DNA of 64,000 nt from an uncultured Gammaproteobacteria bacterium. GTDB lineage: Bacteria; Patescibacteriota; Microgenomatia; Levybacterales; UBA12049. The translations under genes were made by a program, and so were the position numbers. A model generated the notes under the pieces. It searched no databases. It was given only the letters and a program-made list of their open reading frames with translations, and had not been told where the DNA came from. Positions 4,167 to 26,900 of the stretch are shown piece by piece; the first letter of the stretch is position 1; each line of letters begins with the position of its first letter. The stretch lies in contig CAZGGU010000002.1 in NCBI GenBank assembly GCA_964525395.1, positions 30,263 to 94,262 on the forward strand, in the 5' to 3' direction.

Positions 4167-4199
4167 GCTTGATTTTAGCAGATTTGAGGCAAAAATGCT

Positions 4200-9996: not shown

Positions 9997-11349
9997 ATGT
10001 TATCCACAATTGATCAACTTTGGGAAAAAGTACTTGCCGAAATACAAACTGAAGTTTCAGGTGCCAACTTTTTAACACTCTTCAAAAACACCACACTTTT
10101 GTCCCTGGAGGATAAAGTTGCCACTATTTCCGCTCCTAGCCCTATGATAATTGATTTACTTAATAAGCGTTTTTATGAAATTACCAAGAAAGTAATCGAC
10201 AAACACACAGGGGAGGATGTAAAGATTATTTTTGTTCCTAAAGCCATACAAAAACCCAACACTAATCCAGCTGACCATGGCCCGCTTTTTTCTGCCTTAC
10301 AACCAGTAGAAAAACCTATTGGCCACCTGCCAAGAGTGCGCCCTGATTTTATTTTTCAAAATTTCGCTGTTTCGGGATCCAACCAGCTGGCTTTCGTTTC
10401 TGCGAATACTGTGGCTAAAAAATTAGGAACCACATATAATCCTCTGTTTATTTATGGTCCCGTAGGGGTGGGCAAAACCCACTTAATGCATGCTGTGGCC
10501 AACGAAGCATATGCAGATGATCCTAATAGAAAGATTATGTATATAACTAGTGAGGAGTTTACCAATGAGGTAGTTGAGGCAATTAGAACCAACGACACAG
10601 CAAGAATGAAGCGTAGATTTAGGAACTTAGACCTTATCATGATTGATGATATTCAGTTCGTAGCCGGCAAGGAAAGAGTACAAGAAGAACTTTTCCACAC
10701 CTTCAATATCTTGGTGGATAACCAGGCCCAGATTATCCTAACCTCAGACCGCCCACCCTCAGAACTCCGCAAGGTAGAAAAAAGATTAGTATCTCGTTTT
10801 TCTGGAGGGCTCACGGTCGATATTGATTCTCCTGATTATGAGCTGCGTTGCGCCATCCTGCTTACAAAGGCTAAAAAATTTAACTTTGATTTAGATATAG
10901 AGACCGCCAAGATAATTGCATCTAAAACGGAAGATACGAGAGAACTTGAAGGACTGCTTCTTCGAGTTATGTCAGAAGCATCAAGCGAGGAGGGAAACCT
11001 TAGTCCGGATATGGCTAAAAAGGCGCTTTCAGCTAAAAGAGAAACTCCTCGTACTATGTTTCCTGAAGAGGTAATTAAAATCCTTTGCGAGTTCTACGGC
11101 GTAAAGCCTACGGCTCTCAAAGGCGACAAAAGAGACGCCAAACTAGTGCGCGCTAGGCAAACTTGCATGTTTGTTCTTAAAAAAGAGGGGGGACTTACTT
11201 ATGCTGAGATTGGAAACCTTCTGGGAGGCAGGGACCACACTACAGTAATGCATGGAGTGGAAAAGATTGAACTACTTTTGGCTAACGAAAAATATACAGA
11301 AGAAGCCTTGGGAATAAAAGAAGTCCACACTAGGGCTGTGGAAAACTAA
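9997..11349 (+). CDS. dnaA: chromosomal replication initiator protein DnaA
   Basis: Walker A GPVGVGKTHLMHAVANE, Walker B LIMIDDIQF, C-terminal DNA-binding helix-turn-helix; position next to dnaN and rpmH. Confidence 0.95.
   Translation: MLSTIDQLWEKVLAEIQTEVSGANFLTLFKNTTLLSLEDKVATISAPSPMIIDLLNKRFYEITKKVIDKHTGEDVKIIFVPKAIQKPNTNPADHGPLFSALQPVEKPIGHLPRVRPDFIFQNFAVSGSNQLAFVSANTVAKKLGTTYNPLFIYGPVGVGKTHLMHAVANEAYADDPNRKIMYITSEEFTNEVVEAIRTNDTARMKRRFRNLDLIMIDDIQFVAGKERVQEELFHTFNILVDNQAQIILTSDRPPSELRKVEKRLVSRFSGGLTVDIDSPDYELRCAILLTKAKKFNFDLDIETAKIIASKTEDTRELEGLLLRVMSEASSEEGNLSPDMAKKALSAKRETPRTMFPEEVIKILCEFYGVKPTALKGDKRDAKLVRARQTCMFVLKKEGGLTYAEIGNLLGGRDHTTVMHGVEKIELLLANEKYTEEALGIKEVHTRAVEN
10000..10008 (+). 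promoter_or_regulatory. perfect DnaA box TTATCCACA embedded in codons 2-4 of dnaA
   Basis: atgTTATCCACAattgat; exact 9-mer consensus. Confidence 0.55.
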
Positions 11350-11495: not shown

Positions 11496-12614
11496 ATGTT
11501 TGAAATCACAATTCTCTCTGATAAGTTAAAGTCTGGATTGTCATTTGCTAACCATGCAATTTCTTCTAGATCTCAATTGCCAATTCTCTTGAATTTTCTC
11601 TTACAAACTAAAGACGGAAAACTGGAGATCCATGCAACAGACTTGGAAATAGGAATTATTTATAAGACTCCTGTAAAAATTGATGGAGAAGGGGGAGTAA
11701 CGGTTTCAGCTAAAACATTTCTCGATCTAGTATCTAGCGTAAACAAAGACAAGATATCTCTTAAGAAAGATGTAGATACGCTTTTCTTAACAGCAGAGAA
11801 ATTGAAAACTTCATTTCCAACCATCTCCGCTGCTGATTTCCCCAAACTATATTCTGAGCTAGGTGAAAAAAGAGCAGAGTTTGATAAAGATGCGCTCGAG
11901 AAAGAGTTGTCTAAGATCGTGTTTGCTGCTGCTATGGACGCAGCAAGACCAGAGCTATTAGGAGTTCTTATTAAACAGGAAAAGGGGAGTAAGGGTTTGA
12001 CTTTGGTAGCTACCGATGGATTTAGATTATCACTTAAAAAAGGTTTTGGTGGTGGATCAGTGGCTAGCGAGGAAGCCAGCTTCCTAATACCCGCAAGAGT
12101 TATCAAGGAAGCACTCAGTCTTAAGGATGATAAGCAAAAAATTGAAATTTACACCCCAGAATCTAGTAACCAAGTTATTTTTGATACACCCGAAGCTACA
12201 ATTGTTGGACGCCTGATTGAGGGGACATACCCTAATTACGAGAATATCATCCCTGAAGATTTTGCCACCAAAGTCGAATTTGATCGCGAAGAAGTTTTAA
12301 ACGCAGTAAGGCAATGTTCAATCTTTGCTCGTGAAGCTGCCAATATTATAAAAATGTCCATAATGAGCGATAAGGTCGTTTTTAGTGCATCGGCTTCAGC
12401 GGTTGGGGATAATGAAGTAGAGGTGGAGGCTAAAGTAGATGGGGAAGAAAATCAAATAGCTTTTAATTCTAAGTACCTTATCGATTTTTTAAATAGCATC
12501 ACTGATGAGAGAATTATTTTTCAAATGAATGGACCATTAACCTCTGGCGTATTTAAAATAGTGGGGGATGAATCGTTTTTGCATCTAATAATGCCTATTC
12601 AGATAAAAGATTAA
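11496..12614 (+). CDS. dnaN: DNA polymerase III beta sliding clamp
   Basis: 372 aa, three-domain length; N-terminus MFEITILSDKLKSGLSFANHAISSRSQLPILLNF typical of DnaN; follows dnaA. Confidence 0.9.
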   Translation: MFEITILSDKLKSGLSFANHAISSRSQLPILLNFLLQTKDGKLEIHATDLEIGIIYKTPVKIDGEGGVTVSAKTFLDLVSSVNKDKISLKKDVDTLFLTAEKLKTSFPTISAADFPKLYSELGEKRAEFDKDALEKELSKIVFAAAMDAARPELLGVLIKQEKGSKGLTLVATDGFRLSLKKGFGGGSVASEEASFLIPARVIKEALSLKDDKQKIEIYTPESSNQVIFDTPEATIVGRLIEGTYPNYENIIPEDFATKVEFDREEVLNAVRQCSIFAREAANIIKMSIMSDKVVFSASASAVGDNEVEVEAKVDGEENQIAFNSKYLIDFLNSITDERIIFQMNGPLTSGVFKIVGDESFLHLIMPIQIKD

Positions 12615-13237
12615 TTTGCTTCAGCCGAAGGAGTAGTCGAGAGATTTAGCTCTGGTGCAATATTAACCATAAAACTCTGTTGATTTTGAGGAGCGAAATA
12701 TAATATTTCTCCGACATCTTTTCCATCACTTTTTATACCGACACCTTTAGTTAAGAAAATATCCCAAGGATAACCGTCGTTTAATTCAAATAGAGTCATG
12801 TTCGGTTTTCCATATTCTGACTTGAACTCAGAAACTGTCTTTCTATAATTCCCATAAACATTTTCAGTTGAATAAACAACTAGATTGTTTTTAACAAGAA
12901 TTACATTCTGGTGGGATTCAACTGGTGTTTTATAAAACAGGTAGGTTTTATCTGTAGTTCTTTTTATTTCATTTGCTTTGCCATTTATTTTTTGCGCCTC
13001 AGCAAAATTAGTTTTACCTGGGGTTATTTTATTAATTTGTGAGTATTCTGTTTCAAGCGCCTCTGTAGTAGAAGAATTTAGAGCTGGGGAAGGGGAGGGT
13101 GAATTATTCCCTCCTGGAACAAATGAAGTGCCGCTGACGATTGAAATTACCAATAGAATAAAGGCAATAATTGAGAATATGCCAATTAAAAACATTGTAA
13201 TTATTATTTTTTTGTCTGGTAAATCAAATCCATCCAT
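12611..13237 (-). CDS. membrane-anchored extracytoplasmic protein, last gene of T4SS-like operon
   Basis: N-terminal TM IITMFLIGIFSIIAFILLVISIV followed by SPSPSP linker; stop codon overlaps dnaN stop (convergent, 4 nt). Confidence 0.4.
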   Translation of the reverse strand: MDGFDLPDKKIIITMFLIGIFSIIAFILLVISIVSGTSFVPGGNNSPSPSPALNSSTTEALETEYSQINKITPGKTNFAEAQKINGKANEIKRTTDKTYLFYKTPVESHQNVILVKNNLVVYSTENVYGNYRKTVSEFKSEYGKPNMTLFELNDGYPWDIFLTKGVGIKSDGKDVGEILYFAPQNQQSFMVNIAPELNLSTTPSAEAN

Positions 13238-13953
13238 TATTTAAAAGAATATCCTCCAAATATATTATTTTTCACCCAATTTTCTCCGATAGGGCAGCTT
13301 CTGCTCCCCTGAGAAACAATTTGATCTGCCATAAATTCAGCCATACTCTCATTTGAGCCGCTTATATTTCTACCCAAGCTTCTTGCATAGGATGTGTCAT
13401 ATGTGTAGAAAAAATAAGGCGGAAACAATCCAGAAGCAAAAGTGTAGCAGTTTTTGTCCTTGTTGTATGCTTGAGATTCAAATTGTTGAAAAAGCCTCAT
13501 GTGGCCATTTCTAATAATGTGACCAGATTCATGAACTAGTCTTGCTTTTCTCTCGCTATTGCTTGCACAGCTTAAGCTATAACTTCTCAATGTTAGCGTA
13601 CTTGTTCCATCACCGTTGGATTGAACAGTTGCGGGGCATCCTCCTTCGCCAGTTGATATAAATTCAAGTCTGGTTGGGCCTGAACTCCTCAATAATTGTT
13701 TATATTTGGGAGCAGCTGATGCTTCAAGATATATTTTATAGACATCCTGAAGATATGCTTTAGGAGGATTCCCTTGTACTATTATGTTGAAGTCATCTCT
13801 TAAGCATTTAGCGGGATTGTCTAAGCAGGCTTGTGTGGGTTTTACTCCACTTCCAACAATAAGCCTTAAGACTGACTGATCAGCTGCGCGAGCGCTTGAA
13901 GAACTTATCAATAAAAGAAAAATTGGTAAGAAAATTATTAAGATTTTTTTCAT
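13237..13953 (-). CDS. secreted Cys-rich protein with zinc-metallopeptidase-like HExxH...H motif
   Basis: Signal peptide MKKILIIFLPIFLLLISSSSARA; LVHESGHIIRNGH motif; 4-nt overlaps with both flanking genes. Confidence 0.4.
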   Translation of the reverse strand: MKKILIIFLPIFLLLISSSSARAADQSVLRLIVGSGVKPTQACLDNPAKCLRDDFNIIVQGNPPKAYLQDVYKIYLEASAAPKYKQLLRSSGPTRLEFISTGEGGCPATVQSNGDGTSTLTLRSYSLSCASNSERKARLVHESGHIIRNGHMRLFQQFESQAYNKDKNCYTFASGLFPPYFFYTYDTSYARSLGRNISGSNESMAEFMADQIVSQGSRSCPIGENWVKNNIFGGYSFK

Positions 13954-15950
13954 GATTTACCCTCCTGTGCAGTACAAGCGCTACAAGATCCACTCGGAGA
14001 TCTTACTTCACCTCGTCTTATTATATCCTTGCATGCGCTAGTATTTTTAAATTTATCATAGTAACAAAGACATCTGGCGGTTCCCCAATAGCTAAAGTTT
14101 TTTCCATCCCTGGCCAAGGAGTTGTTATATGACACAGCGTTTTCTACCTGTTTTTGCCAAGTCACGTCTCCGCGGTCATCAGCCTGAGTCCAAATCTTGA
14201 ATGGGTTAGGGAAGCTTCTTCTCATCTGGAACTTTCCCCATGATCCCCCCGCGCCGTTTCGCCCATAACCGTTTGGCGTATTGGTCTCACATTTGGCAAT
14301 CGATTTCCACATGTTTTGATTAGCCACGTTTGCCTCTGTTTGCTCAATTACTCTGTTTAATTTAGCTTCTGAATATGTGCATAACGGATCACCGAAATTG
14401 GTTGCAGAGGACTGGGGAAAATCTTTTTTAAGAGTAGTCATAATTTCCCGATATTTACCGTTGCAGGTGTTATTGCTTGGCCTAGCTGTAGCGCCTTCAA
14501 ACAGTCCGCCATTTTCTCCGGAGGTGCCTCCATCATTGGTAAGTGTCACGCCACTCATGGTCAGAATCATGCTCGTGGCGCCTGTATCAGTTTGCAGGGT
14601 CCCGCTAACTGTAAATTCATAGTGTCTTTTGGTTCCACCTGTGTTTGGCAGGCTCCACTGATAGATAAAATAGGTAGTATCTACGGGAACGCTAATTATT
14701 TTAGGTTTAGGATTGTCTGGTGTTTCAATGTTTGCGAAAAATCTATTACTGATTTGAACATTGGCCTTTAAGTTGCTTGGGTTAGTATCGAGCTTAGCGG
14801 TGTCAACATCGATGATTACTTTTACTGAAACCTTATCGCCTTTACTTCCTGCTGGGCAGTTTACTCTGCAGCCATCTGCTGTAGCAAGATAAGCCTCGCC
14901 CCCCACAAAAGTGACAGAGGTGGGTTTTTCCTGTGGACCCGGTGGCGGCTGTGTGACTTGATCAGGGTTATTGCCACAATAGTTTGCTCCGAAAAAGTCT
15001 CCAATCGGATTATTCACTACGCTACAGCCCAGTATTAGTATAATTATTACTAGTAGAAAAATTGCAAATATTACTCCCACCACAGGTCCCCATATCTCGA
15101 TTGTGGAAAGTAGTGTTCTGGCTACTGCTTTTTTGCCTTGAGACTTCAAAGTCTTTCCTAAAGCTTTTTTGGTTATTCTACCCCTTTTTCTCAGAGCTCT
15201 TCCGGCCGGCCTTGCTTTTGATGGAGCAGTGGACACTTGAGGTGTTGATTGCGGTTCTGGGAGCGGTTCTGGTATGGGTTCAGACCTTCCCCAGTCATCG
15301 AAATTGCTTGGGATGATTTCGGGATCAGGATAGTAGCCAATTTCAGATATAGACGGGGTGGTAGCGCTTGGGGTGGTGGTTGCGTTTTGTTTGGTAGCTT
15401 CTTGCGCACTGTTTTCTTGCTGAGGATTCAAGGAGACTGAAGGAACGCTTGATTCAATTTCGCCCCATTCAGATTTAAGTTGAGCTAAATCCTGCGGAGT
15501 AGTTTCAGAAATTTTTTCCCCAGCTTTTTGCATTTGGTCAAAGCGCGTCTTGGGTTGGGTGGGAGCATTTTCGATCGAAGTATTATTTGGTTTATCTTTT
15601 TTCTCTTCTGCTTCTGGTTTTTTAGGCTCAGGTTTTGGCTTTGGGGCAAAAGGCGCGTCCCATCCCGAAAGCGCATTGCTAAATACATTTCCCCCTGGAG
15701 TTTCTTTAGGCATTTCCTTAATCTCAGGTTTTTCTGGTTCAGGGGCTTGAATTCTTGATGCTAGCCAATCTTGTCGGGCAAGAAGTGTGCCCGGAATGTC
15801 TCTTATTCCTTTAGAGCGTAAAACTGCCTCAAGGTCTACCTGGGAACCACTCAGTGCAATTTCTTTTTCTTGCGGGGTAAGTAGGCTATAAACAAGCTCA
15901 AAACGCCTAGAGTTTCTTAGTCTTTTCTCAGCTGTAGGATCGTTTGCCAT
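13950..15950 (-). CDS. bitopic membrane protein with C-terminal Rpf/transglycosylase-like (lysozyme-like) domain; candidate T4SS cell-wall hydrolase (VirB1/PrgK/TcpG analog)
   Basis: Central TM VVGVIFAIFLLVIIILILG; Pro/Lys-rich linker; C-terminal KCETNTPNGYGRNGAGGSWGKFQM...W...SYWGTARCL resembles Rpf transglycosylase-like domain (CESGGNW..NGYYGGLQF...W...C). Confidence 0.5.
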   Translation of the reverse strand: MANDPTAEKRLRNSRRFELVYSLLTPQEKEIALSGSQVDLEAVLRSKGIRDIPGTLLARQDWLASRIQAPEPEKPEIKEMPKETPGGNVFSNALSGWDAPFAPKPKPEPKKPEAEEKKDKPNNTSIENAPTQPKTRFDQMQKAGEKISETTPQDLAQLKSEWGEIESSVPSVSLNPQQENSAQEATKQNATTTPSATTPSISEIGYYPDPEIIPSNFDDWGRSEPIPEPLPEPQSTPQVSTAPSKARPAGRALRKRGRITKKALGKTLKSQGKKAVARTLLSTIEIWGPVVGVIFAIFLLVIIILILGCSVVNNPIGDFFGANYCGNNPDQVTQPPPGPQEKPTSVTFVGGEAYLATADGCRVNCPAGSKGDKVSVKVIIDVDTAKLDTNPSNLKANVQISNRFFANIETPDNPKPKIISVPVDTTYFIYQWSLPNTGGTKRHYEFTVSGTLQTDTGATSMILTMSGVTLTNDGGTSGENGGLFEGATARPSNNTCNGKYREIMTTLKKDFPQSSATNFGDPLCTYSEAKLNRVIEQTEANVANQNMWKSIAKCETNTPNGYGRNGAGGSWGKFQMRRSFPNPFKIWTQADDRGDVTWQKQVENAVSYNNSLARDGKNFSYWGTARCLCYYDKFKNTSACKDIIRRGEVRSPSGSCSACTAQEGKS

Positions 15951-15953
15951 ATG

Positions 15954-17987
15954 TTAGAAAGTTTTAGTTGCATCATTAATGTTTTGACTAGGTAGAGGTG
16001 ATTCTGGCGCTGATTGAAAGCCAAAATCAACCGGAGCTGATGGTTGATGGGATGCAGGCGGAATGGGTGCAGGTTGGGTTGGGCTTGCAGCCTCAATATT
16101 CAGATTAGGGTTGGTTGTTATTTCTACTTTTTCTTCTTGGGGATGAGATTCGATGGCTGAGCCAAATTGTGATTCCAGTGTATTGTCAGGGCGCTGCTCT
16201 TGTTCTTTAAGTGCTTTTAGTTTGAGAACTTCTTCGGGATTGGAAGTAATAAGTTCATGTTCAAATGGCGCAGCCAAAACCTTCATGGCCACATGACTTT
16301 GGCCAGCGAAGAATAATCCTTCACCGATGTTGGCAGAGAGCAAGAGTTGTTTTTCTTGTTCGGAAAGATAGAAAATATTTGATACCAAATCAATCTGCGT
16401 TGGGCTTTGTTTCAGCAGCATTTGAATAGATGAGTTTGAAAGTACAGCCTTGCCGTAATCATTGGACAAAAAGTCCTGAACATCCTGTGTTGCAGTAGTT
16501 AGAGCAAGGTAATATTTACGAGCTCGCTTAGCAATTCCGTGTACAAAAGAAGCTGAATCTTGATACTTCATTAAATACCATGCCTCATCTAAGACTAGTA
16601 GGCGTTTTTTAAGATCTTTTCTTACCTTGGTCCAAATAAAATCAAGAATGATATGCATTGCCACAGGACGTAGTTGATCTTCAAGTCCTTGCGTTGAGAA
16701 AATAGTCAAAGGATTTTTAATATCAAAGTTAGACTGCTGATTAAATATTCCAGCCATGCTGCCTTTAATAAATTTCTCAAGCCTGAGAGCCAAGTCTCTA
16801 GCAATAGGATCTTCTGTGCCAAGCAAGACCTTGTATAAATCTTCCATAAGGGGTGGTTCTTTAGTTTGCGTTGAAGGATCAGGGGTAATTCCTTTTTGAC
16901 GATAGGTTTCCACTAGCGCGCGGTCAAGAATGGCGTCATGTTGTGCGTCAATGTCTCCCAAAACAATCCTGAGTAGGGCGTGCAGAGACAGGATTTTTAG
17001 TCCTAGTTCGTTTTCCCCCTCTTCGTATCTTCCTGAAAGATCAAAAGGATTAATCTTAATAGGTGAGGCTGGGGTAAACTCTACATATTCTCCTCCCATA
17101 GCTCGCGTAAGCTCTCCATACTCGCCTTCAGGGTCAATAACGATAACCTCTGTACCAAACATAAACTGCCTCATGATTTCTAGCTTGATCAAATAAGATT
17201 TTCCAGATCCTGACTTTCCGAATACTACCTCATTGCCGTTCTCAAGAGAATATCGATCAAAGACTATTAATGAGCCATTGAGTTGATTAATGCCATACAT
17301 GACGCCCTTATCTTGAGTAAGTGTGGCTGATGTGAAGGGAAAGGTGGATGCAAGACTGGTAGTGTCCATATTGCGCGTGAGAAGAAGCTCATCTCGCGCT
17401 AAAGGCACAGTGGATTTAAATCCCTCCTCCATCTGTAATGTTGAAGGTTTAGCGGTCAAGAGAATTGAAGCAAGAAGGGTCTTGAGTCTTTTTCCTGCTT
17501 CTTTTAGTTCTTCTAAATCATCAGCAACGAGTGTTACATAGAGGCTAAATTGGAAAAATCTCTCAATACCTTTGGCAAGCTCCTCTTGAACGGCAAGCGC
17601 ATCTTCGAGAGAGGCTTGAACTGTGGGATCCAAAACTTTTCCATCTTCTTCTTGCTTGGAAAGCGTAGCTTCCATTTCAGCGATTTTTCTTCTTAAGTCT
17701 CCCAAAATATCTCCAGATGACTGAGGATAGCAAAACATGGAGATGTTTAGTGATTGATCAAAATCAATTAAAGGCTCTAGCCAATTCGGCGAAACGTATC
17801 TTGGATATCCAACCACGAAAAATGTTTTAAAATATTTTTCTCCGACGCGAATGTGTCCGAAATCGACCTCTACGGATGGGGGAGCGATAATGTCAGTCAC
17901 ACTGTTCATTCCACGCTCGAAATGCTCAAGTGGTTTATTCGTTTTGGTTGGCATTGGAACAACAGGAGCTTTTTTTCGTCCAAACAT
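15954..17987 (-). CDS. virB4: type IV secretion ATPase VirB4/TrbE/PrgJ family (main body)
   Basis: Walker A FGKSGSGKSYLIK, Walker B LLVLDEAWYL, conserved VirB4 N-domain segment HIRVGEKYFKTFFVVGYPRYVSPNWLEPL. Confidence 0.8.
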   Translation of the reverse strand: MFGRKKAPVVPMPTKTNKPLEHFERGMNSVTDIIAPPSVEVDFGHIRVGEKYFKTFFVVGYPRYVSPNWLEPLIDFDQSLNISMFCYPQSSGDILGDLRRKIAEMEATLSKQEEDGKVLDPTVQASLEDALAVQEELAKGIERFFQFSLYVTLVADDLEELKEAGKRLKTLLASILLTAKPSTLQMEEGFKSTVPLARDELLLTRNMDTTSLASTFPFTSATLTQDKGVMYGINQLNGSLIVFDRYSLENGNEVVFGKSGSGKSYLIKLEIMRQFMFGTEVIVIDPEGEYGELTRAMGGEYVEFTPASPIKINPFDLSGRYEEGENELGLKILSLHALLRIVLGDIDAQHDAILDRALVETYRQKGITPDPSTQTKEPPLMEDLYKVLLGTEDPIARDLALRLEKFIKGSMAGIFNQQSNFDIKNPLTIFSTQGLEDQLRPVAMHIILDFIWTKVRKDLKKRLLVLDEAWYLMKYQDSASFVHGIAKRARKYYLALTTATQDVQDFLSNDYGKAVLSNSSIQMLLKQSPTQIDLVSNIFYLSEQEKQLLLSANIGEGLFFAGQSHVAMKVLAAPFEHELITSNPEEVLKLKALKEQEQRPDNTLESQFGSAIESHPQEEKVEITTNPNLNIEAASPTQPAPIPPASHQPSAPVDFGFQSAPESPLPSQNINDATKTF

Positions 17988-18649
17988 TATTTATTTCCTC
18001 CCTTCACAGTTTTTGCTGATACGTATGGATTATGAATTCCGTCGGTAAGGTTAGAGCGTCCAGCTTCTTCATTGAACGATTCATAGTAAAGCTCAATTAG
18101 CTCCTCTTTCTCTAGAACTTTTGACTTAAGGCCAACGCGCTGAAGTTCTTGCATAAGAGAACGTGCTTTTGAGACAAGCATAGGCTTGGCTTCTTTAGCA
18201 AAATCTTCTTTATTTCTAATATTGGTCACTGCTCCTGCGCCCTTTTCCAGAAAAGAATAGGTAAAAACAAGATAAAATTTCTTATCAAGGACTGTTTCTT
18301 TTTGGATAAGGTTGGCTACAAAATCCTTATAGAGAAGGATGTGTTTGGAAAGTAGGGGATTGTTCGTTTTCTTTGACTCTGCGTCTAGAAGATGAACGTA
18401 GGAGCTAATATCAAGCTTTCTGGAAACAATCAGAATCTGAATTGGGTAAGAAAGTGAATTTAGGAAAGAAGCATACGAGAGAATTTTAACTTGCTGCTCC
18501 TCAGGCGACTGCAAAGCGAAGTTGGTAGCGGTAATTTCTAGAACCATGCATGCCTGATTGCCGGGTAAAACCACTACGCTCTCGAATATGTCCTGAATTT
18601 CAATAAAGCGTTGAGTGGTTGTATTTATTTTTTGGGCAGATTTGCTCAT
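17987..18649 (-). CDS. separately encoded VirB4 N-terminal segment (split virB4), translationally coupled
   Basis: VVVLPGNQACMVLEITATNFALQSPEEQQVKILSYASFLNSL matches the first conserved block of the CagE/TrbE/VirB4 N-domain; stop overlaps next start as TAATG at 17985-17989. Confidence 0.5.
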   Translation of the reverse strand: MSKSAQKINTTTQRFIEIQDIFESVVVLPGNQACMVLEITATNFALQSPEEQQVKILSYASFLNSLSYPIQILIVSRKLDISSYVHLLDAESKKTNNPLLSKHILLYKDFVANLIQKETVLDKKFYLVFTYSFLEKGAGAVTNIRNKEDFAKEAKPMLVSKARSLMQELQRVGLKSKVLEKEELIELYYESFNEEAGRSNLTDGIHNPYVSAKTVKGGNK

Positions 18650-19885
18650 TTAGTTAAAAAGCTCCCTCCTAAGCTCTTCCCTTTTATCCACCGAAGTTAC
18701 TTCAATTGGCATAATTGGATGACCGGTTGCTTCGATTTGAACAATGTCGAATTTATTTTCTTCTTTAGGGTCTTCAAAGCTCAGGAAATATTTGCCATTT
18801 GAAACAGAGGTGGCTGAAGCAAATTGACCAAGGCCATTGGTTTTAAATGCTCTGACAGGATTATCTTCTTCGTCTTTTACTTCAACTAATACGTTCTGAA
18901 GTGGATTTCCTCTCGGGTCTTTTACAATTCCAGTGATAAGATTGGGCGCTTCAGGCATGCTAAGAACTCCTGCAGCCTTGGTTTGATTTGGCGCCACTTG
19001 CTTTACTCTTGGTTCCTGAGTTGCTTGAGGTGCTGGAGGGTTGGGCTGGCTCGTTGGCTGAGCAGGAATCACTGGAGGAGTTGAATGATCCTCAAGCTTA
19101 GAGTTGATCTTAAGAACCTCTCGCTCTAGTTCTTCTTTTTGACGAGTTGCTTCAGCAAGCATTTTTTCTAACTCTGCGATTTTTTGATCAGCAGCATCTT
19201 GATTTACGGCTGGAGCGGTTTGCTCAAGTGTTTTGCTTGCCTCAATTTGTTTTTCAAGAATCGCAGTTTCTGCATCTATTTTTTTCTCTGCAGCTTCCAC
19301 TTTTGCCTTTTGCTCTTGGTCTAGTTGATCTTGTTGAGCTTTTTCTTGAGCGGCTCTAGCAAGCTCGTCTGCGCTTGGTTGATTAGGAGTAGGAGCTACT
19401 TGTGCTGGCGCTGGGACTGGAGCTTGAATTGGTTGGATTTGTTGAACAGGTTGAGCTGAGATTTGATTTAATTCAATAGTTTGCATAACGGGAATATTTG
19501 GTGCTTGAACTGGCACGTGTGGCGCAGGCAAGGGGATGACTTGGGGTATCTGCTTCTCGGAAACTGTTTGCTTCTGGGTTTTAGTGATATCTCCACCATC
19601 TTTTCCATAAATATATTTCGTGGGGGAAAGCATGGCTCTGAAAAGATTGATAAACATAGTGTCCATTGGGCGTCCGTCCACGGGAACGAAGGTAAAGATT
19701 ATTCCTATAGTTACAATCACAATTGAGATTGGCCAAGAAATGATGTGAGGAATTGGCAACAGGAAAGAGATAAACCAGCCAATCAAAACGACAACTGCCA
19801 AATACACAAACTGCCTAACGGTCATAGAACCGATAAGCTTAAATTGAAAGCCTGTAATGTCTTGGGGAATTGGGTGATTCTCCAT
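18650..19885 (-). CDS. PrgI/VirB3-like two-TM protein fused to long Pro/Gln-rich coiled-coil and C-terminal globular domain
   Basis: N-term IPQDITGFQFKLIGSMTVRQFVYLAVVVLIGWFISFLL followed by second TM matches PrgI-family topology/motif (P.D...K....T.RQ); central coiled-coil EQKAKVEAAEKKIDAETAILEKQIE. Confidence 0.45.
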   Translation of the reverse strand: MENHPIPQDITGFQFKLIGSMTVRQFVYLAVVVLIGWFISFLLPIPHIISWPISIVIVTIGIIFTFVPVDGRPMDTMFINLFRAMLSPTKYIYGKDGGDITKTQKQTVSEKQIPQVIPLPAPHVPVQAPNIPVMQTIELNQISAQPVQQIQPIQAPVPAPAQVAPTPNQPSADELARAAQEKAQQDQLDQEQKAKVEAAEKKIDAETAILEKQIEASKTLEQTAPAVNQDAADQKIAELEKMLAEATRQKEELEREVLKINSKLEDHSTPPVIPAQPTSQPNPPAPQATQEPRVKQVAPNQTKAAGVLSMPEAPNLITGIVKDPRGNPLQNVLVEVKDEEDNPVRAFKTNGLGQFASATSVSNGKYFLSFEDPKEENKFDIVQIEATGHPIMPIEVTSVDKREELRRELFN

Positions 19886-20013
19886 CTATTCTCTTTCCCT
19901 GCCTAATATTAACAATAGAATAATATGTGAAAAATCCCATTTCAAGGCTATCGAAATAGATCAGGTTTAGAAGAAATTGGCCTTAAATGTGAAAAGCCAT
20001 TTCTGACTAGAAG

Positions 20014-20388
20014 TTATTGAGTGCCCCTGCCTGCTCTAAGGTTAGTCGCGTTGGTAGTTGCATTGCATGATGTAAAGCCAAATTTAGTAATGCAGCCAAC
20101 TCCTGTTATGCCAGCAATAATATTTAAAACAGCGAAGGACATAAGTATAACTATGAGACCGATTAGAGCCCAAGTGATAGTTTTTTTAGCCCCATCTGCT
20201 GCCTTAGGGTCTCCTCCAGAGGTGATATATTTTATTCCGCCAAGAATTACTAAGAAAAGTGCAATTATTCCTGCGAAGGTTAGAGCCCAAAAAATAAGGT
20301 TTTGAAATAGTACAGTTGCACAGTCTAAGGTAAGTATCTCCCCATACTTACTATCAAACGCACAAGCATTACCAGCTAATTTAAACAT
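20014..20388 (-). CDS. VirB2/TrbC-like pilin paralog 3
   Basis: Two hydrophobic helices flanking ILGGIKYITSGGDPKAADGAKKTITWALIGL; shared motif with the two upstream paralogs. Confidence 0.55.
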   Translation of the reverse strand: MFKLAGNACAFDSKYGEILTLDCATVLFQNLIFWALTFAGIIALFLVILGGIKYITSGGDPKAADGAKKTITWALIGLIVILMSFAVLNIIAGITGVGCITKFGFTSCNATTNATNLRAGRGTQ

Positions 20389-20431
20389 AAATTTAGCGTA
20401 ACAAAGAGGGGATTAAATCTCAAGCGGAAGT

Positions 20432-20851
20432 TTAACTGTTGGTGTAATTGGTAAGTGTGGGAAGAGTTAAATTGGTTAAGTTAATTCCGAAAAAGCCAAG
20501 TAAAATGTTCAAGATAAAGAATGACAAGAACATGATTGCGAGACCGATAAGAGCTGCTACAATCATTTGTCTTGATGCATCAACCTTCTTGGAGTCTCCG
20601 CCTGACATTATCCACTGAATTCCTCCAAAAATAAGGAAGCCGAGAGCAATAATTACGCCGATTACGAAAACTACTTGGATAAGGGTAGCCACTATTCCGC
20701 TGAAATCAGAGAGAGTTAATTTACAAAGTCCGCCAAATCCTCCACCAGGGCATACGCTAATTTTTTGTTGAGCATGTGCTTGAGGAGCGAGTGTTAAGAA
20801 TGGTACCGCTGAAAGTGAAATGGCAGTTATCTTTTTCATGTATATAAACAT
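20432..20851 (-). CDS. VirB2/TrbC-like pilin paralog 2 (with cleavable signal peptide)
   Basis: Signal peptide ...LTLAPQAHAQQ; FLIFGGIQWIMSGGDSKKVDASRQMIVAALIGLAIMFLSFFILN. Confidence 0.55.
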   Translation of the reverse strand: MFIYMKKITAISLSAVPFLTLAPQAHAQQKISVCPGGGFGGLCKLTLSDFSGIVATLIQVVFVIGVIIALGFLIFGGIQWIMSGGDSKKVDASRQMIVAALIGLAIMFLSFFILNILLGFFGINLTNLTLPTLTNYTNS

Positions 20852-20887
20852 CGTAGAAATATTTTAAATTCTTGTCAAGGGGTCAAT

Positions 20888-21223
20888 TTATGTGAGCTTT
20901 AAAAGATTGAGTCCGAAGAATCTGCCGACTACATTAATTATGAAAAATGCTAAGAAGGTGATGATAAGGCCAATCGCTGCGAAAGTAATTTTCTTTCTGG
21001 CCCCATCTACAGCTTTCGCATCTCCACCTGATGAAATCCACTGAATCCCGCCCCACATGATGAAAAATAAGGCTGCTAAGACTGCAGCAATAAACATGTA
21101 TGTAATTCCCAAGCGAATTACACCTTGAAGAGTGGGGAGACCAGACTCAGGCATGCCACCAATGGGTTTTAAATCAATTTGTTTGCCGTCACTGGGAACT
21201 TTAAGTGCTATTTCTCTAATCAT
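20888..21223 (-). CDS. VirB2/TrbC-like pilin paralog 1
   Basis: FFIMWGGIQWISSGGDAKAVDGARKKITFAAIGLIITFLAFFIIN; two TM hairpin. Confidence 0.55.
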   Translation of the reverse strand: MIREIALKVPSDGKQIDLKPIGGMPESGLPTLQGVIRLGITYMFIAAVLAALFFIMWGGIQWISSGGDAKAVDGARKKITFAAIGLIITFLAFFIINVVGRFFGLNLLKLT

Positions 21224-21225
21224 AT

Positions 21226-22470
21226 TTAACTAAATCCTGGAAGACCAAGGATATCAACTGTAATTAATCTAAGAATTGAGAGAGAAAAGATGATGAGTAA
21301 AAGTCCTGCAACGGCTGCTATTATGGCTTCTCTTGCTTCTGCTATTTTTTTAGGGTCCCCCTGTGAGGTCATTAGTTTAAATCCATTAGCGATAAAAAGA
21401 ATAATAAGAATTCCACCGGAAAGACTGAGGACGAGAATCAGCACGCTTCTAGCAAAGCCTTCAGGATTAATCCCAATCTTACCTATAGCTGTGTTGCAGG
21501 AGTTTGGAATTGCTTCGCCGGATTTAGGCTGACAGGGATTAGAAACTTTATTGCCCGGGTAGTCATAGCAGCCCAACTTTCCATCTGTGCCTGTGGTGCA
21601 GTATTTGCCACCGCATTCGGAATCATTATTGCAGCCTGAATGACCACCGTTTTGATCCACCGTGAAAGAGTCTGAGCAGTTTGTGTTATATTTGCCATCG
21701 ATCTGGACTTTATATGAGTTTTCTCCTATTAAATCATTTCCTACCGATACTCCCGCCGCTGCCTCGAGTTCACTTCTAGTTGGTGTAAATCTTTTTATCT
21801 CTGATCCATTTTCAGTTCCATTTATTTGAATAATTCTGACAAGCATTTTATCTTCAGGTTTTTCTGTAAACTCCTTTTTAAATGCAGCTTTTATTTTAAC
21901 TTCAGTTCCAGGCTTAAAATCAGTGTTTAGATATGTAATCGTGCAAAACTTATTGTCAACGCTAGTTTTTTGAATTTCCAAAGAGGCGCTTCCTAGGCTG
22001 CAGAGTAGAAAATCTCTGTTTTGACCCTGCTCTCCTTGGTGTCCGGTGGTTCTTAAATTGAATTCATATTTGCCAGGGTTGAAATCTGATGCATGATCCC
22101 CCTTTGTGTTTCCATTTCGATCAAATGGGGTATTAACAGTTGCGAGAGTATCTTCTTCGAATCGTTCCAGCGTCACTTTCGCAGGTACATTTGATTTATA
22201 AAATAAATCTCCAGTATCTTCTCCAATCGTACGAATGTCTCCTCCTTGTGGATTTATTGTCATTTCAATATTTGACGTAAGTGGAATTTGTTGACCCTTT
22301 ATTTTTAAGGTGATGCTATTTATTATATGGTCATCATCTCCTGCAGACTGTTTTTCTGAAATCTTCTGGATAGAACATTCACTTTTAGAATTTTGAGCAT
22401 AAGTAGGCTGAGTGTAAGTTGAAACAATCAGTATTAAAAAGAGTAGGACAGCAAAGATAATTCTTTTCAC
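21226..22470 (-). CDS. secreted Cys-rich extracellular domain fused to C-terminal pilin-like module (candidate minor pilin/tip adhesin)
   Basis: Signal peptide MKRIIFAVLLFLILIVSTYTQPTYA; Cys-rich GCNNDSECGGKYCTTGTDGKLGCYDYPGNKVSNPCQPK; C-terminal ILFIANGFKLMTSQGDPKKIAEAREAIIAAVAGLLLIIF shares the pilin paralog motif. Confidence 0.5.
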   Translation of the reverse strand: MKRIIFAVLLFLILIVSTYTQPTYAQNSKSECSIQKISEKQSAGDDDHIINSITLKIKGQQIPLTSNIEMTINPQGGDIRTIGEDTGDLFYKSNVPAKVTLERFEEDTLATVNTPFDRNGNTKGDHASDFNPGKYEFNLRTTGHQGEQGQNRDFLLCSLGSASLEIQKTSVDNKFCTITYLNTDFKPGTEVKIKAAFKKEFTEKPEDKMLVRIIQINGTENGSEIKRFTPTRSELEAAAGVSVGNDLIGENSYKVQIDGKYNTNCSDSFTVDQNGGHSGCNNDSECGGKYCTTGTDGKLGCYDYPGNKVSNPCQPKSGEAIPNSCNTAIGKIGINPEGFARSVLILVLSLSGGILIILFIANGFKLMTSQGDPKKIAEAREAIIAAVAGLLLIIFSLSILRLITVDILGLPGFS

Positions 22471-22506
22471 AATTTTATCGTAGAAGAAAATGAGATTTTT
22501 GGCAAG

Positions 22507-23814
22507 TTAAGGTGTGAATTTAAAGCCGCGTCCTTTTACAGTTTGCAGATGAAGCGGTGAATTAGGGTTTTCTTCAATTTTTTTCCTAACCCTAAAAATA
22601 AGTTGATCAAGCGCTTGCTCTGAGACCCCAACTGTAGTGCCTAAATCTCCCCAAACTGCAGAGATGATTTCCTCTCTTTCGATTATCTTGTCAGGATTCA
22701 TTAGCAGATAAGCAAGAAGCTTAAATTCAGCAGATGTTAAAGATTCTGAAATAATAATTTTTCCTTTTTTAATTTCTTTAGACTCTTTATTAAAACTAAT
22801 CTTTTGAGTATCTGTCTCATTTTGTTTTTTTGCATAAGACATGAGTAGCGGAAGAGCAAATTTATTATCCCTAACTAATCCTACTGCCACGAGATGTGAA
22901 GAATCGTGAGCTTTGTTTTCCTCGATGAGGTTTTGCTCAAATGGAGTAAAATATTTCCAAATTTCTTCCAAAACTGCCTTGATTCTGCTGTTTGAAAATA
23001 AAGATTTTTCTAAATTTTCTTGTTCACCGTTTTCTAGACAAGCCTCAGCTGCTACTCTGGTTAGTTTTCCTACGCCTCCAGTTAAATTCGTGACTGTCTC
23101 GAGTGTTTGCTCTGAAAGTTTTTTATTCGCTTGTTTTTGAATATAATTTAACCTGAAATCTAAAACTGCCTTATTCATCAGCGGCAAATATACTATATTT
23201 CCTACTACGAATTCGTAATAATCAGCAATTAAATCATTTTCTACTATTTCTTCGAGTGGGCGAGAGAGAGGAAAGATAGCAGAGAAGCGATATTTAGCTC
23301 TGTCTCTAAGAACCCTAAGATTGCTAAAAAATTGTGGCGTAAGCATTGGGAGATATTCCTCAAAGCGATCGAAGAGAAAAACAACTGTATATTCTTTTTC
23401 AAGTGACAGATAATCAATAGATTTTCGCAGTCCTTGAAACAGAACTAGTTCATCGTTGGTTTTGAGGCTTTGTTCGAAAAGTCCACGAATATATTTAGAT
23501 TCTTCTTCCAGATGGCGTTCTTCAAAAGAATCAAGTAGCTCAAGAAACATATACTTGGTAGCCTCAGTTAATGGTCGTTTTTTAATTTCAGAGAAATTCA
23601 TCATGACGAAGTGAAACCATTTTTCGTTTTCCTTGAGGTGAAGAGTTCTGGCTTCGCGATTGTAGGAAAGAAGTCCCATGATGTTGGATCTTCCTACGCC
23701 TGGAAGAGAAACGATTTGCGCAGAATTTCCAGATTTTATATATGAGAGGACTTTATCAATTTCATCAAACCATGAATCTGGGGGATATAGAGATTCGAAA
23801 TGTTTAGGATCCAT
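22507..23814 (-). CDS. transcriptional regulator: N-terminal P-loop/STAND-like NTPase domain + C-terminal OmpR/PhoB-type winged-helix DNA-binding domain
   Basis: C-term LTSAEFKLLAYLLMNPDKIIEREEIISAVWGDLGTTVGVSEQALDQLIFRVRKKIEENPNSPLHLQTVKGRGFKF = trans_reg_C wHTH; N-term SLPGVGRSNIMG (degenerate Walker A) and VVFLFDRFEE (Walker B-like). Confidence 0.55.
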   Translation of the reverse strand: MDPKHFESLYPPDSWFDEIDKVLSYIKSGNSAQIVSLPGVGRSNIMGLLSYNREARTLHLKENEKWFHFVMMNFSEIKKRPLTEATKYMFLELLDSFEERHLEEESKYIRGLFEQSLKTNDELVLFQGLRKSIDYLSLEKEYTVVFLFDRFEEYLPMLTPQFFSNLRVLRDRAKYRFSAIFPLSRPLEEIVENDLIADYYEFVVGNIVYLPLMNKAVLDFRLNYIQKQANKKLSEQTLETVTNLTGGVGKLTRVAAEACLENGEQENLEKSLFSNSRIKAVLEEIWKYFTPFEQNLIEENKAHDSSHLVAVGLVRDNKFALPLLMSYAKKQNETDTQKISFNKESKEIKKGKIIISESLTSAEFKLLAYLLMNPDKIIEREEIISAVWGDLGTTVGVSEQALDQLIFRVRKKIEENPNSPLHLQTVKGRGFKFTP

Positions 23815-23914
23815 TAAAACATTGTAATCTAACTAGCCTCAAAACGTCAATTTTATAAGGCTTTTGTAATGTAGATATCAAGTCTATAGTTTGATTTTTC
23901 CTTAAACTACGCAC

Positions 23915-26900
23915 ATGGAAAGAGAAGCTTTCACGCCAGAAGAATTGACAGGACAAGGCCAAAACGCCTATTCTAGAAGTATGCCAGAAACACCTGATAA
24001 TCCTATTAAAGGTCCTGAACAAATACCGCCTCAAAGAGTAAAAAGACCACATTCAGAAGTTAACCCATCGTCAATTGAAGAAAGAATTCAGCAAATGGCG
24101 GAGGAATATCGAGGAAAAGGAATTCCTGTAGATTTTGGCACTCTCCAAGCTTTTAGAGCTCTTGCAGAAAGAGGAATTATGCCAATGGGTGGAGGCGCAG
24201 ACGATCCCGATGGGGGACCTGCGGGGGGAAGAAGACGAAGAAGAGCGGGAGCAGATGGAGTGCCGCCAATTCCACTAGATGAACAAATTAATGCATTTGC
24301 AGAAGCGAATGGGCTTAGTCCTGAAACCGACCGTGCTTATATTCTTAACGCGTTGGACCGTCAAAGAGCAGATGATGAGAGAAGAGCTGCTAGAGCTCAA
24401 GGGGCAGAGGGGTGGAGAACTATGTATCTTAAGGATCAGGACATGGAAATTTTGAACAGAAATCCCATGGAGTGGATCGAGGAAAAGTTTAATGAAATAA
24501 ATGCTCTTGCTAAGAAAGGAGCAGAACTTGATTCTCCTGCGCTTCAGCGTATTCAAACACTTTTCGGAGAAGCGCATGAGTACGTAGCTAATTTTAAGAA
24601 AAATGATCCTGAGCTAGTTCAGCAATTTACTGATGTATTTTTAGGAAGACTTAACTTAATGTTTATGGCTTCCACTATTGAGCTACGAGATTTAGAGTCT
24701 GCAGGGAAAATGGCAAGAAGAACAAAAGCTTCTACTCTATTTAGTGCGATGGAATATGAAGATGGAAAAGTAGGAATGCTCTATAACAGAATGCAAACTA
24801 TGTATGAAGATTACAGATTGGCTATCGGAGGAGTAGATAGAAAAATATTACCCGAGTTTGAATCTCGATTCCAGCAATTTATTATAGACGGAGAAATGAA
24901 GATGGCGAAGAGAGGGGTAGGTGAATATGCGGCCAAATATGCAGAAATAACGGCTATTGTTAATGGGCAAGGATTGTCAGAAAGACAAAGAGTAATACTT
25001 GGGAAGATGGGAATAAATCCCGATGATCCTATTCAGGCTACCCCAGAAAAGCTAGAAGAAGCAAGACAAGCTGAGATAAATGACAGAATTGAGCTAGATA
25101 TTAGAAGAGCAATGGGACCTGCTTGGGATATTTTCCGTATAACCCAGCGTCATGCGGTTATTAATGCTAGAGCGCATAAAACAAATTCTAGAGATGTTAA
25201 GAAATTGGCTGGAGGTTGGAAGGAGTTTTTAGGTCAGAATGGTGCTGCTTTTGCTTCATTTAACGCGGAAAATATGCTCTGGGAGGAATATGGCCTCTAT
25301 ACTGGTCATGATTGGGCTTTTGTAAGAGAAATTAAGCGTGATCTGGCAACTTCAGAGATAGCAGATAGGCTCAAAAATATTAAGAAAAAAAGAGCTAAAT
25401 TAAATGCTGGTGAAGATCCAGATAAAGATGATCATCATGTAAGCGATGAGGATGAAGGAGAAGAGGATCATCATGTTCTTCATGATGAACATCCAGAAAC
25501 ACCTGAACAAAGAAATGTTAGATTTGCGGAAATACGTAGACAGCTTCAAATTGAAGAGAATATTTTACGCAACATGACACAAGCAGATGTGGATGAGTTT
25601 GGAAAGACGCTCTTTAGAGATATGTATGCAGCTGCTGATTTTTACTCCTCTGGGTGGAGAATGAACGGTATCTTAGATCAGCTTGACAAGTATGGAAATT
25701 ATTTAAATTCTCAGGATGGGGTGGATCCACATCATCCAGTATTTGATTCCAAAAATTTCGGAATGTTTGTTCGATTAAGGGCAGATGCAGGTGGTAGAAG
25801 AGATACCTGGGAAAGAATTGCCACATTTCGACAGGAGGAAATATTAAGGCTTTACAGAGATAAAATTCTGACAGAGCCTAGCCCACAGTACGATAGCCAT
25901 GGTCATAAAATTAAGGCAAAAAAGCCAGCGCCAGATTATATGAAGCCGTCGCTTGATTTATTCTTCGGTAAGCTTAGAGAAATGGGAATAACTACTGACG
26001 ATTTACCTGCAGAATTAAAAGATGCTCAAACAACTGAATACGATGTATTTAAATTAAGGTATGGAGCAGCGATTCAAACTATTCGCCAGCAGGAGATGGA
26101 GGCTAGGGGAAATGGAGTACCGCGTCAAATAGACTTTTCTGCAATTGAGGTAGGATCAGATGACTATGTAAGATTTAAAGAAATAATTGATAATTCAGTG
26201 GGAAAGGAAGGAGCAATTGATGATGTCATAAGAGTTTACAAGGAAATGAATAGATTCATTGGACGTAGGGATGCTATTGGTTTTGAACCCAAGGTGATTG
26301 ATAGGCTTATTTATGATCCCAAGTTTGCGGATATTTACACGAGAGTGATAACAGCAGATGATATCCTTTCAACAAAGATTGAAGGACCCTCATCGCCTAT
26401 AACTTCTCTTACTCAAAGTGTTTCCGTAGATCAGGCAACTGACGCACTTGTTAGAAATTTTAATGATTTAGGCCATGCGGGAAATGCAATGGGTGGACTT
26501 TTGACGTTCGTTAAAGAAGAGCACGAAGAACCTAGATTAAAGGCAGCGCTTGAATTCGCTGAAGAAGCAAGCATGTATGGAGGGCAGGATGCTAGAGCTA
26601 AGAATGTAAGATTTACTTTTGGAACTTATCTTAATCTAGCGAAGAAAGATTGGCTTTGGGACACAATGGATTTTGAGTCAGGGCCTGCAAGAAAAGCGAT
26701 TTCAAATGCACAGAAAATATATGGGCCACAGTTGAAGGCTAAATCAAGAGCAGAATTAAGACATGAATTAGATGAAATTAGATATAAGCTCGAGGGCGCC
26801 TTTGGAGGACACCTCGGTGATAAATATTATAGAGAGCTTGAGCATATGCTTGAGGTAACTAGTGGAGATTCTAATAAGATGAGATTTATGTCATTCATGA

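Follow-up and report, generated by a model that had tools for sequence, protein, structure and literature searches.

We found that VirB4 is encoded by two adjacent minus-strand genes in the window (the whole 64,000-nucleotide stretch of DNA analysed here), and these very probably represent a genuine VirB4 divided between two genes, in a T4SS of the Patescibacteria (Levybacteria/Microgenomates type), and an old arrangement. The two-gene arrangement itself is already known, having been described for Patescibacteria. For annotation, this means that the 220-aa "hypothetical protein" would become TrsD-like (VirB4 N-terminal sub-domain), and that the 677-aa protein would count as a complete, functional VirB4 partner, not as a truncated gene.

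The ORF list and the sequence itself place the trsD-like gene (220 aa, minus strand, 18649..17987) immediately ahead of a trsE-type virB4 gene (677 aa, minus strand, 17987..15954). The two meet in a TAATG (minus strand, 17985..17989) in which the trsD-like stop codon TAA (17989-17987) and the virB4 start codon ATG (17987-17985) have one base in common, and direct reading of the junction, GGA GGA AAT AAA TAA TG, gives an offset of -1/+2 for the downstream frame. In the virB4 frame, the codons preceding the ATG are TAA (17993-17991) and ATA. A Shine-Dalgarno-like sequence, AAGGGAGGA (GGGAGG; minus strand, 17996..18004), lies within the 3' end of the trsD-like gene, 9 nt 5' of the virB4 ATG, and the junction sequence is A/T-rich (AAATAAATAATG). 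The preliminary description of this DNA had reported the TAATG with its -1 frame offset, the in-frame TAA two codons upstream of the downstream ATG, and a span of 17980-18655 that brackets the 220-aa ORF, and all three agree with our reading. The junction was identical base for base in two independent assemblies, SRR14271365 and SRR28520283. A promoter and terminator scan of 12400-24100 returned counts equal to the shuffled expectation, with no signal at the junction.

Aligned to single-chain VirB4 proteins and profiles, the two ORFs cover successive stretches with almost no overlap. The 220-aa ORF occupies positions 1-182 of the NCBIfam CD1110 profile and the 677-aa ORF positions 179-734; on the VirB4_plasma profile the corresponding ranges are 97-279 and 285-893. 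In BLASTP against the 754-aa VirB4 of Carboxydocella, the 220-aa ORF matched residues 1-173 (E 4e-18) and the 677-aa ORF residues 186-750 (E 1e-75), a similarity of both ORFs to one single-chain VirB4 that is far above chance. A fused 779-aa Levybacteria orthologue (L063) carries both parts in one ORF behind the same PrgI-like gene; its residues 204-770 are 74% identical to the VirB4 of the window, and its TrsD part is 43% identical to the window protein. Split forms have about 45 more linker residues than fused forms. An AF2 model of this fused orthologue (pLDDT 64, pTM 0.41, residues 197-273 and 357-443 below 50) was discarded as a guide to the packing of the two parts because its quality was too poor.

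The 220-aa protein has a folded core at about residues 17-195 and a disordered tail at 195-220, and the first-block motif quoted in the preliminary description, VVVLPGNQACMVLEITATNFALQSPEEQ..ILSYASFLNSL, is located in this ORF, whose homology is to the first ~180 residues of single-chain VirB4 proteins. Under the name TrsD/TraD-like, this small ORF has been treated in earlier literature, of which the preliminary description was unaware. It sits where a TrsD/TraD-type gene is expected, immediately 5' of a short trsE-type virB4, and matched the NCBIfam TrsD/TraD family (NF041427) over profile positions 10-200 of 201 with 18.9 bits (E 1e-3), below the curated cut-off of 200 bits; ten of 28 homologues matched the same family at E<=1e-3, the best with E 1e-5. 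From these profile matches, the protein is to be regarded as a distant TrsD/TraD-like relative that lies outside NCBI's membership threshold for NF041427. Precomputed matches marked "weak" assign PF26593 "TraC-like" to the identical protein P0001 and to nearly all homologues, while a local Pfam-A hmmscan at E<=10 returned no family, only sub-threshold EccE and TraC_F_IV fragments. A PDB-chain sequence search yielded only chance coiled-coil matches, and by fold the protein resembles TrwK weakly (TM 0.31-0.38, E ~1e-2). An origin of the two N-domain blocks by internal duplication, with TrsD as a paralogue of the block retained in VirB4, was rejected at the sequence level (hhalign of the block profiles, probability 0.1%).

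The 677-aa VirB4 comprises the second N-domain block (~22-225), a P-loop ATPase domain (~224-582) with the motif GKSGSGKS, and a low-complexity P/Q/S-rich tail (~600-677). It passes the curated cut-offs of VirB4/TraG-type P-loop ATPase families in Pfam and NCBIfam, with 99.8 bits to PF19044 (cut-off 25.8, E 1.7e-28), matches to PF12846 and PF01935, and 388.4 bits to conju_CD1110 (cut-off 325; 752 profile positions); in the PDB it matched the VirB4 C-terminal domain 4ag5 (E 2.9e-48) and TrwK (E 1e-4). PF19044, CD1110 and 4ag5 bear out the earlier assignment of both the Walker A/B ATPase and the second N-domain block to this ORF, and the CD1110 and Carboxydocella ranges given above bear out the alignment check proposed with it, that both ORFs cover one protein.

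The gene order places this VirB4 in a T4SS: upstream of it on its own strand come a PrgI gene, at a distance of two genes, and beyond that four T4SS_pilin genes. Directly ahead of the trsD-like gene is a PrgI/VirB3-like membrane protein of 411 aa with a long C-terminal extension (minus strand, 18650..19885; PF12666 PrgI, E 3.5e-11, residues 5-93), which also has a weak CarboxypepD_reg match at 317-373 and whose stop codon directly abuts the trsD-like start (TAA ATG, spacer 0). The array of four VirB2-like pilin genes (minus strand, 20014..22470, with genes at 20014-20388, 20432-20851, 20888-21223 and 21226-22470) matched PF18895 T4SS_pilin, two with scores that reach the gathering cut-off of 26.6 (29.6 and 34.0 bits) and two just under it (22.5 and 26.1 bits); the 414-aa protein of the array has an Mbov_0395-family pilin-like match. 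The first gene of the minus-strand cluster (22507..23814) encodes a 435-aa regulator with a C-terminal OmpR/PhoB-type winged-helix DNA-binding domain (PF00486 Trans_reg_C, E 1.4e-18, residues 358-433); in NCBIfam it matched response regulators in their C-terminal parts only, and no receiver domain was detected in it. Downstream of virB4, three ORFs of 666, 238 and 208 aa belong to the same tightly packed cluster (minus strand, 12611..15950) and matched nothing in Pfam, NCBIfam or the PDB sequences; no family was matched by a 1037-aa ORF either. The regulator, the four pilins, the PrgI/VirB3-like gene, the trsD-like gene, virB4 and the three further genes form one tightly packed operon, which is chromosomal and adjoins dnaN/dnaA.

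The 220-aa protein is widespread as a stand-alone form, with 439 homologues of 199-228 aa (about 215) at 50-80% identity, and 2633 clusters (at 50% identity) match its profile. Among the 150 best matches listed, the domain is N-terminal with a single exception (P0386, residues 86-281), and many TrsD homologues carry long Q/P/S/T-rich tails of 100-500 residues. The same split, which the preliminary description had suggested looking for at orthologous loci, was present as two ORFs in ~75 of 80 GTDB loci. Junctions at these 80 loci included a 4-nt ATGA overlap (n=35), a 1-nt overlap (n=9) and a gap of 0-20 nt (n=~17), and ranged from overlaps of -20 to -1 nt to gaps of up to 170 nt; an AGGAGG core was found at 39 of 66 tight junctions versus 11% of random windows.

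The preliminary description had offered either a genuine split subunit or a recent frameshift or pseudogenisation, and only the former stands. That a single-chain virB4 was recently frameshifted or pseudogenised to give the pair, or that the pair stems from an assembly indel at 17985-17990, has almost no chance of being correct: the frames are one base apart and fused orthologues exist, so that a single indel could in principle interconvert the two forms, but the stand-alone protein is conserved across hundreds of clusters, an alignment of 28 homologues shows 37 invariant columns, the split is retained across most genomes with varied junction geometries, and the 677-aa ORF is equipped with a separate ATG and Shine-Dalgarno site. 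The extra linker residues of the split forms also put them more than one indel apart from the fused forms, and the same junction occurs in both assemblies. With the split common to orthologues and the upstream protein conserved, pseudogene or frameshifted-gene status was rejected.

Programmed ribosomal frameshifting or read-through, by which both ORFs would yield a fused full-length VirB4, is very improbable. The A/T-rich junction would suit it, as would four loci (L037, L044, L045 and L048) where the two ORFs share one frame with a TAA alone between them; however, a TAA stands in the downstream frame two codons ahead of the window's ATG, the canonical X XXY YYZ slippery heptamer is absent at the junction, the geometry is variable among loci, and a conserved ATG at essentially all junctions is accompanied by Shine-Dalgarno enrichment. 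Programmed frameshifting was rejected on this junction anatomy and its variability. We also consider it improbable, if less remote, that the 220-aa protein, derived from the VirB4 N-terminus, now acts as an independent accessory factor, such as an adaptor or regulator, and does not simply complete the N-domain. TrsD is without an assigned function and is unlinked to virB4 in Gracilibacteria (PMC12102498), many homologues are long-tailed, and evolution is faster in the TrsD part than in the VirB4 part, as the two identities to L063 indicate; yet the block that TrsD supplies is exactly the block missing from the partner VirB4, close orthologues join both through a short linker, and the two genes overlap in most genomes.

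In the two-gene reading, the first ~180-residue sub-domain of the VirB4 N-terminal domain is produced as a separate 220-aa protein and the remainder, the second N-domain block with the Walker A/B ATPase, as the 677-aa VirB4. The 1-nt overlap and internal Shine-Dalgarno site suggest that the trsD-like gene and virB4 are translationally coupled. Since the start codon of virB4 shares a base with the stop codon of trsD and is served by a Shine-Dalgarno site within trsD, ribosomes that end trsD may re-initiate, or be recruited at once, at the virB4 ATG, which would give roughly equimolar products. The 220-aa protein may then dock non-covalently on the N-terminal part of VirB4 and so rebuild a complete N-domain. 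In TrwK and other single-chain VirB4s, the N-domain contacts VirB3 and the inner-membrane complex, as seen in R388 structures.

The system closely resembles the T4SS described for Patescibacteria (Quinonero-Coronel et al. 2025, PMC12102498) and the essential T4SS of Ca. Southlakia epibionticum ML1, with which it shares VirB4, TrsD, PrgI/VirB3 and a VirB2-like pilin array; as there, trsD lies beside virB4 and the cluster near dnaA/dnaN, and we found no essential differences. According to that study, TrsD ranks first in abundance among the T4SS components of Patescibacteria, is present in 2,221 assemblies and is remotely homologous to the VirB4 N-terminus; its gene usually lies beside virB4 and near dnaA, 1,664 homologues adjoin virB4, trsD is essential in Ca. 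S. epibionticum ML1, and the T4SS clusters are mostly without a relaxase (PMC12102498). The name "TrsD" does not appear in the main text of Guglielmini 2014 (PMC4027160). This type of T4SS is essential for epibiotic growth of cultivated Saccharibacteria (PMC12102498, PMC12857230), so the two-chain nature of the ATPase matters for structural and genetic work, a point already made in the literature.

A small cytoplasmic protein immediately upstream of a short VirB4 is likewise found in TrsD and TrsE of pGO1/pSK41-type (MPF-FATA) plasmids, in TraD and TraE of pIP501 and on Bacillus cereus/thuringiensis plasmids, where TrsE-type VirB4s of ~620-680 aa also lack the first N-terminal block. We saw this split directly on Firmicutes plasmids, as a TrsD (345 aa) and TrsE (627 aa) pair on B. 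cereus pH308197_73 and as a 274-aa protein with a CD1110 VirB4 in Pontibacillus. The TrsD/TraD proteins of those plasmid systems are only distantly related to the window protein (~26% identity by tblastn), and the window system differs in being chromosomal, beside dnaA and accompanied by VirB2-like pilins. Single-chain monoderm VirB4s (the CD1110 family, the Mbov_0397 family and the 754-aa protein of Carboxydocella pCCELLA01) are covered fully, in order and without gaps by the two window ORFs, but they are one polypeptide where the window has two, and the ~45 extra residues, probably disordered, flank the break point in the window (TrsD tail 195-220, VirB4 1-22). The TrwK/VirB4 of R388 (PDB 7o41-7o43, 8rtb, 8rtd) belongs to a diderm system and is a single 823-aa chain, with an N-terminal similarity to the window protein that is detectable only by fold, at the low TM values given above.

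To the known picture our analysis adds fused orthologues as close as L063 and the interleaving of fused and split forms among close relatives, with fusion or fission possibly recurrent. About 30 fused clusters have both PF26593 and P-loop domains, and ~24 fused sequences were interleaved with 15 split ones when the VirB4 part was placed in a crude neighbour-joining tree; neither TrsD-VirB4 fusions inside Patescibacteria nor recurrent fusion and fission are mentioned in PMC12102498. Repeated fusion and splitting of the TrsD block and VirB4 within Levybacteria/Microgenomates is a tentative reading that we hold to be rather unlikely. If it is true, the first N-sub-domain would be a detachable docking module whose covalent linkage is nearly neutral to selection, and expressing it separately, in many cases with long disordered tails, would leave stoichiometry or partner choice free to vary. 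The unlinked TrsD of Gracilibacteria, whose homologues are not beside virB4 (PMC12102498), and the long disordered tails of many homologues hint at some functional independence of TrsD.

Direct reading of the minus strand places the 220-aa trsD-like ORF at 18649..17987 and the 677-aa virB4 ORF at 17987..15954, with a junction that reads ...GGA GGA AAT AAA TAA TG... One base is common to the stop TAA (17989-17987) and the start ATG (17987-17985), and the frame of the 677-aa ORF is offset by -1/+2 relative to the 220-aa ORF, so the two ORFs, TAATG overlap, and -1 offset of the preliminary description were borne out in all details. Its in-frame TAA two codons upstream of the ATG was also seen: the downstream frame runs through TAA (17993-17991), then ATA, immediately before the virB4 ATG, which blocks simple frame-restoring read-through. 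A Shine-Dalgarno-like AAGGGAGGA (18004-17996, minus strand) lies 9 nt upstream of this ATG within the 3' end of the 220-aa ORF, while on the upstream side the stop of a 411-aa ORF directly abuts the start of the 220-aa ORF (TAA ATG).

Sequence matches identify the 677-aa protein as a VirB4 ATPase. Its residues 247-554 match PF19044, PF12846, and PF01935 in Pfam, it reaches 388 bits (cut-off 325) with the NCBIfam model "VirB4-like conjugal transfer ATPase, CD1110 family", and among PDB sequences residues 224-582 match 4ag5, the crystal structure of the C-terminal domain of Thermoanaerobacter VirB4 (E 2.9e-48), with a further match to TrwK of R388 (E 1e-4). Walker A lies near residue 257, compared with near 450 in the 823-aa TrwK, so about 200 N-terminal residues are absent from the 677-aa protein. 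For the 220-aa protein, our local Pfam copy and the PDB sequences gave no match; in two single-chain VirB4 models of NCBIfam it maps to the N-terminal part, and it also matches a TrsD/TraD model (201 positions; 10-200, E 1e-3), which the 677-aa ORF does not match. On VirB4_plasma (894 positions) the 220-aa ORF covers 97-279 (E 2.6e-9) and the 677-aa ORF 285-893, and on conju_CD1110 (752 positions) they cover 1-182 (E 9e-5) and 179-734; with these consecutive ranges, the two ORFs together tile the single-chain VirB4 profiles from end to end. Each of the 28 aligned homologues of the 220-aa protein also matches the N-terminal part of VirB4_plasma (best E 6e-13). An internal duplication between the two VirB4 N-domain blocks was rejected at the sequence level, hhalign giving it a negligible probability.

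A tblastn search of plasmids with the 220-aa protein yielded three informative cases. In contrast to the two ORFs of the window, VirB4 of Carboxydocella pCCELLA01 is a single chain of 754 aa, and aligning both ORFs to this full-length protein, a check suggested by the preliminary description, matched residues 1-173 to the 220-aa ORF (E 4e-18) and 186-750 to the 677-aa ORF (E 1e-75). Two genes therefore encode consecutive parts of what is one protein elsewhere, and the proposal that the VirB4 N-domain begins in the 220-aa ORF and continues in the 677-aa ORF holds. The other two plasmids are split like the window: on B. cereus pH308197_73 a gene annotated as TrsD (345 aa) precedes one for TrsE (627 aa), and in Pontibacillus the gene for a 274-aa protein overlaps that of a 621-aa "CD1110 family" VirB4. 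Thus, fused and split states are both present in Firmicutes, and the split state has already been named.

The preliminary description had offered either a genuine split subunit or a recent frameshift or pseudogenisation, and homologues and orthologous loci decide between them. A database search returned 439 homologues of the 220-aa protein; the 120 of these that were listed come without exception from Levybacteria-type MAGs, measure 199-228 aa, and show 50-80% identity, and nearly all have a precomputed match to PF26593 ("TraC-like"). Across 1.84 billion cluster representatives, the family profile matched 2633 clusters (352 at E<=1e-30), and in the best 150 of these the domain is N-terminal in all except P0386 (residues 86-281). 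In GTDB genomes of Levybacteria, Curtissbacteria, Beckwithbacteria, and other Patescibacteria, we located both genes and measured their junction at 80 loci, most of which have two ORFs as in the window: 35 show a 4-nt ATGA-type overlap, nine the same 1-nt TAATG-type overlap as the window, six other overlaps, about 17 a gap of 0-20 nt, and six larger gaps, with a single fused ORF at three, an ambiguous start at two, and the contig end reached before virB4 at two. At 39 of 66 tight junctions an AGGAGG core lies ahead of the virB4 start, versus 11% of random windows. The identical 220-aa protein and a base-identical junction also occur in two independent assemblies (runs SRR14271365 and SRR28520283). 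The two-gene arrangement has been kept over the long term; the conserved homologues, the split loci, and the repeated junction exclude a recent frameshift, a pseudogene, and an assembly indel. The recent-frameshift reading is thus refuted, and the split-subunit reading is supported by conservation and tiling, in an arrangement already known.

At four of the loci with short gaps (L037, L044, L045, and L048; junction ~4630 in each), trsD and virB4 share a frame with only a TAA between them and the ATG directly after, so a fused protein could arise there by stop-codon read-through alone. Many TrsD-like proteins of other Patescibacteria (P0283, P0338, P0261, and others) carry apparently disordered, Q/P/S/T-rich C-terminal tails of 100-500 residues, in which no Pfam domain was found; the P/Q/S-rich C-terminal tail of the window VirB4 (residues ~600-677; 15954-16190) resembles them.

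The trsD/virB4 junction combines an overlap with an internal ribosome-binding site, an arrangement in which virB4 translation would be coupled to trsD termination. Such coupling would favour equal amounts of the two products, and the small protein may then bind the N-terminal region of VirB4 non-covalently, rebuilding the full N-domain. In R388 T4SS structures, the N-domain of single-chain VirB4 contacts VirB3 and the inner-membrane complex.

The fused ORFs lie at 3982-6283 (L056), 3995-6334 (L063), and 3952-6331 (L071), and fused proteins also occur among database homologues (P0121-P0152). L063 has a PrgI-like gene as in the window, followed by one 779-aa ORF whose first ~200 residues are the TrsD block and whose residues 204-770 share 74% identity with the window VirB4; about 45 linker residues of the split form (TrsD tail 195-220 plus VirB4 1-22) are missing. 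Searching with this protein found many split VirB4s of 590-740 aa and, among these, about 30 fused clusters (746-891 aa); about 24 of the fused clusters have precomputed PF26593 and P-loop domains together. A neighbour-joining tree of the VirB4 part, built without support values, interleaves the fused with the split forms and gives only a hint that fusion or fission may have recurred in Levybacteria-type genomes. A low-confidence predicted model of the L063 protein was too poor to read domain packing. NCBI annotation of the L063 contig (JACPGP010000016.1; protein P0125) gives only a 593-aa "ATP-binding protein" from an internal Met of the 779-aa ORF, so the TrsD block of fused genes can be hidden in public annotation.

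Among T4SS components of Patescibacteria, none was found in greater abundance than TrsD, for which 2,221 assemblies yielded 2,272 homologues, 1,664 of these homologues adjoining virB4; the components listed as essential for Ca. S. epibionticum ML1 include TrsD (Quinonero-Coronel et al. 2025, PMC12102498), and a 2025 review sums up the same systems (PMC12857230). The window adds a further example of this published arrangement. PMC12102498 makes no mention of TrsD-VirB4 fusions in Patescibacteria, so the fused Levybacteria-type orthologues are a small addition.

The T4SS cluster spans 23814 to 12611 on the minus strand, in the order 435-aa DNA-binding protein, four VirB2-like pilins, PrgI/VirB3-like protein, trsD-like gene, virB4, and three ORFs with no family match. 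The first gene (22507-23814, minus strand) encodes a protein with a C-terminal OmpR/PhoB-type winged-helix DNA-binding domain, no detected receiver domain, and a P-loop-like GVGRSN motif within its ~330-residue N-terminal part. One pilin is 414 aa long (21226-22470, minus strand), its pilin domain confined to residues 339-402 at the extreme C-terminus and preceded by a ~330-residue Cys-rich extracellular region for which no known family was found. The unusually long 411-aa PrgI/VirB3-like protein (18650-19885, minus strand) has an N-terminal membrane domain, a long P/Q/A-rich and coiled-coil stretch, and a weak carboxypeptidase-regulatory-like (Ig-like) domain (residues 317-373), an architecture shared by the L063 PrgI-like protein. 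The cluster ends against dnaN (11496-12614, plus strand), with dnaA (9997-11349, plus strand) adjoining on that side and yidC (8360-9211) nearby, in agreement with the tendency of published Patescibacteria T4SS clusters towards the replication origin, often near dnaA/dnaN (PMC12102498). Divergent from the cluster is a 1037-aa ORF (23915-27028, plus strand) with no family match, which ends in 13 consecutive glycines and then HH.
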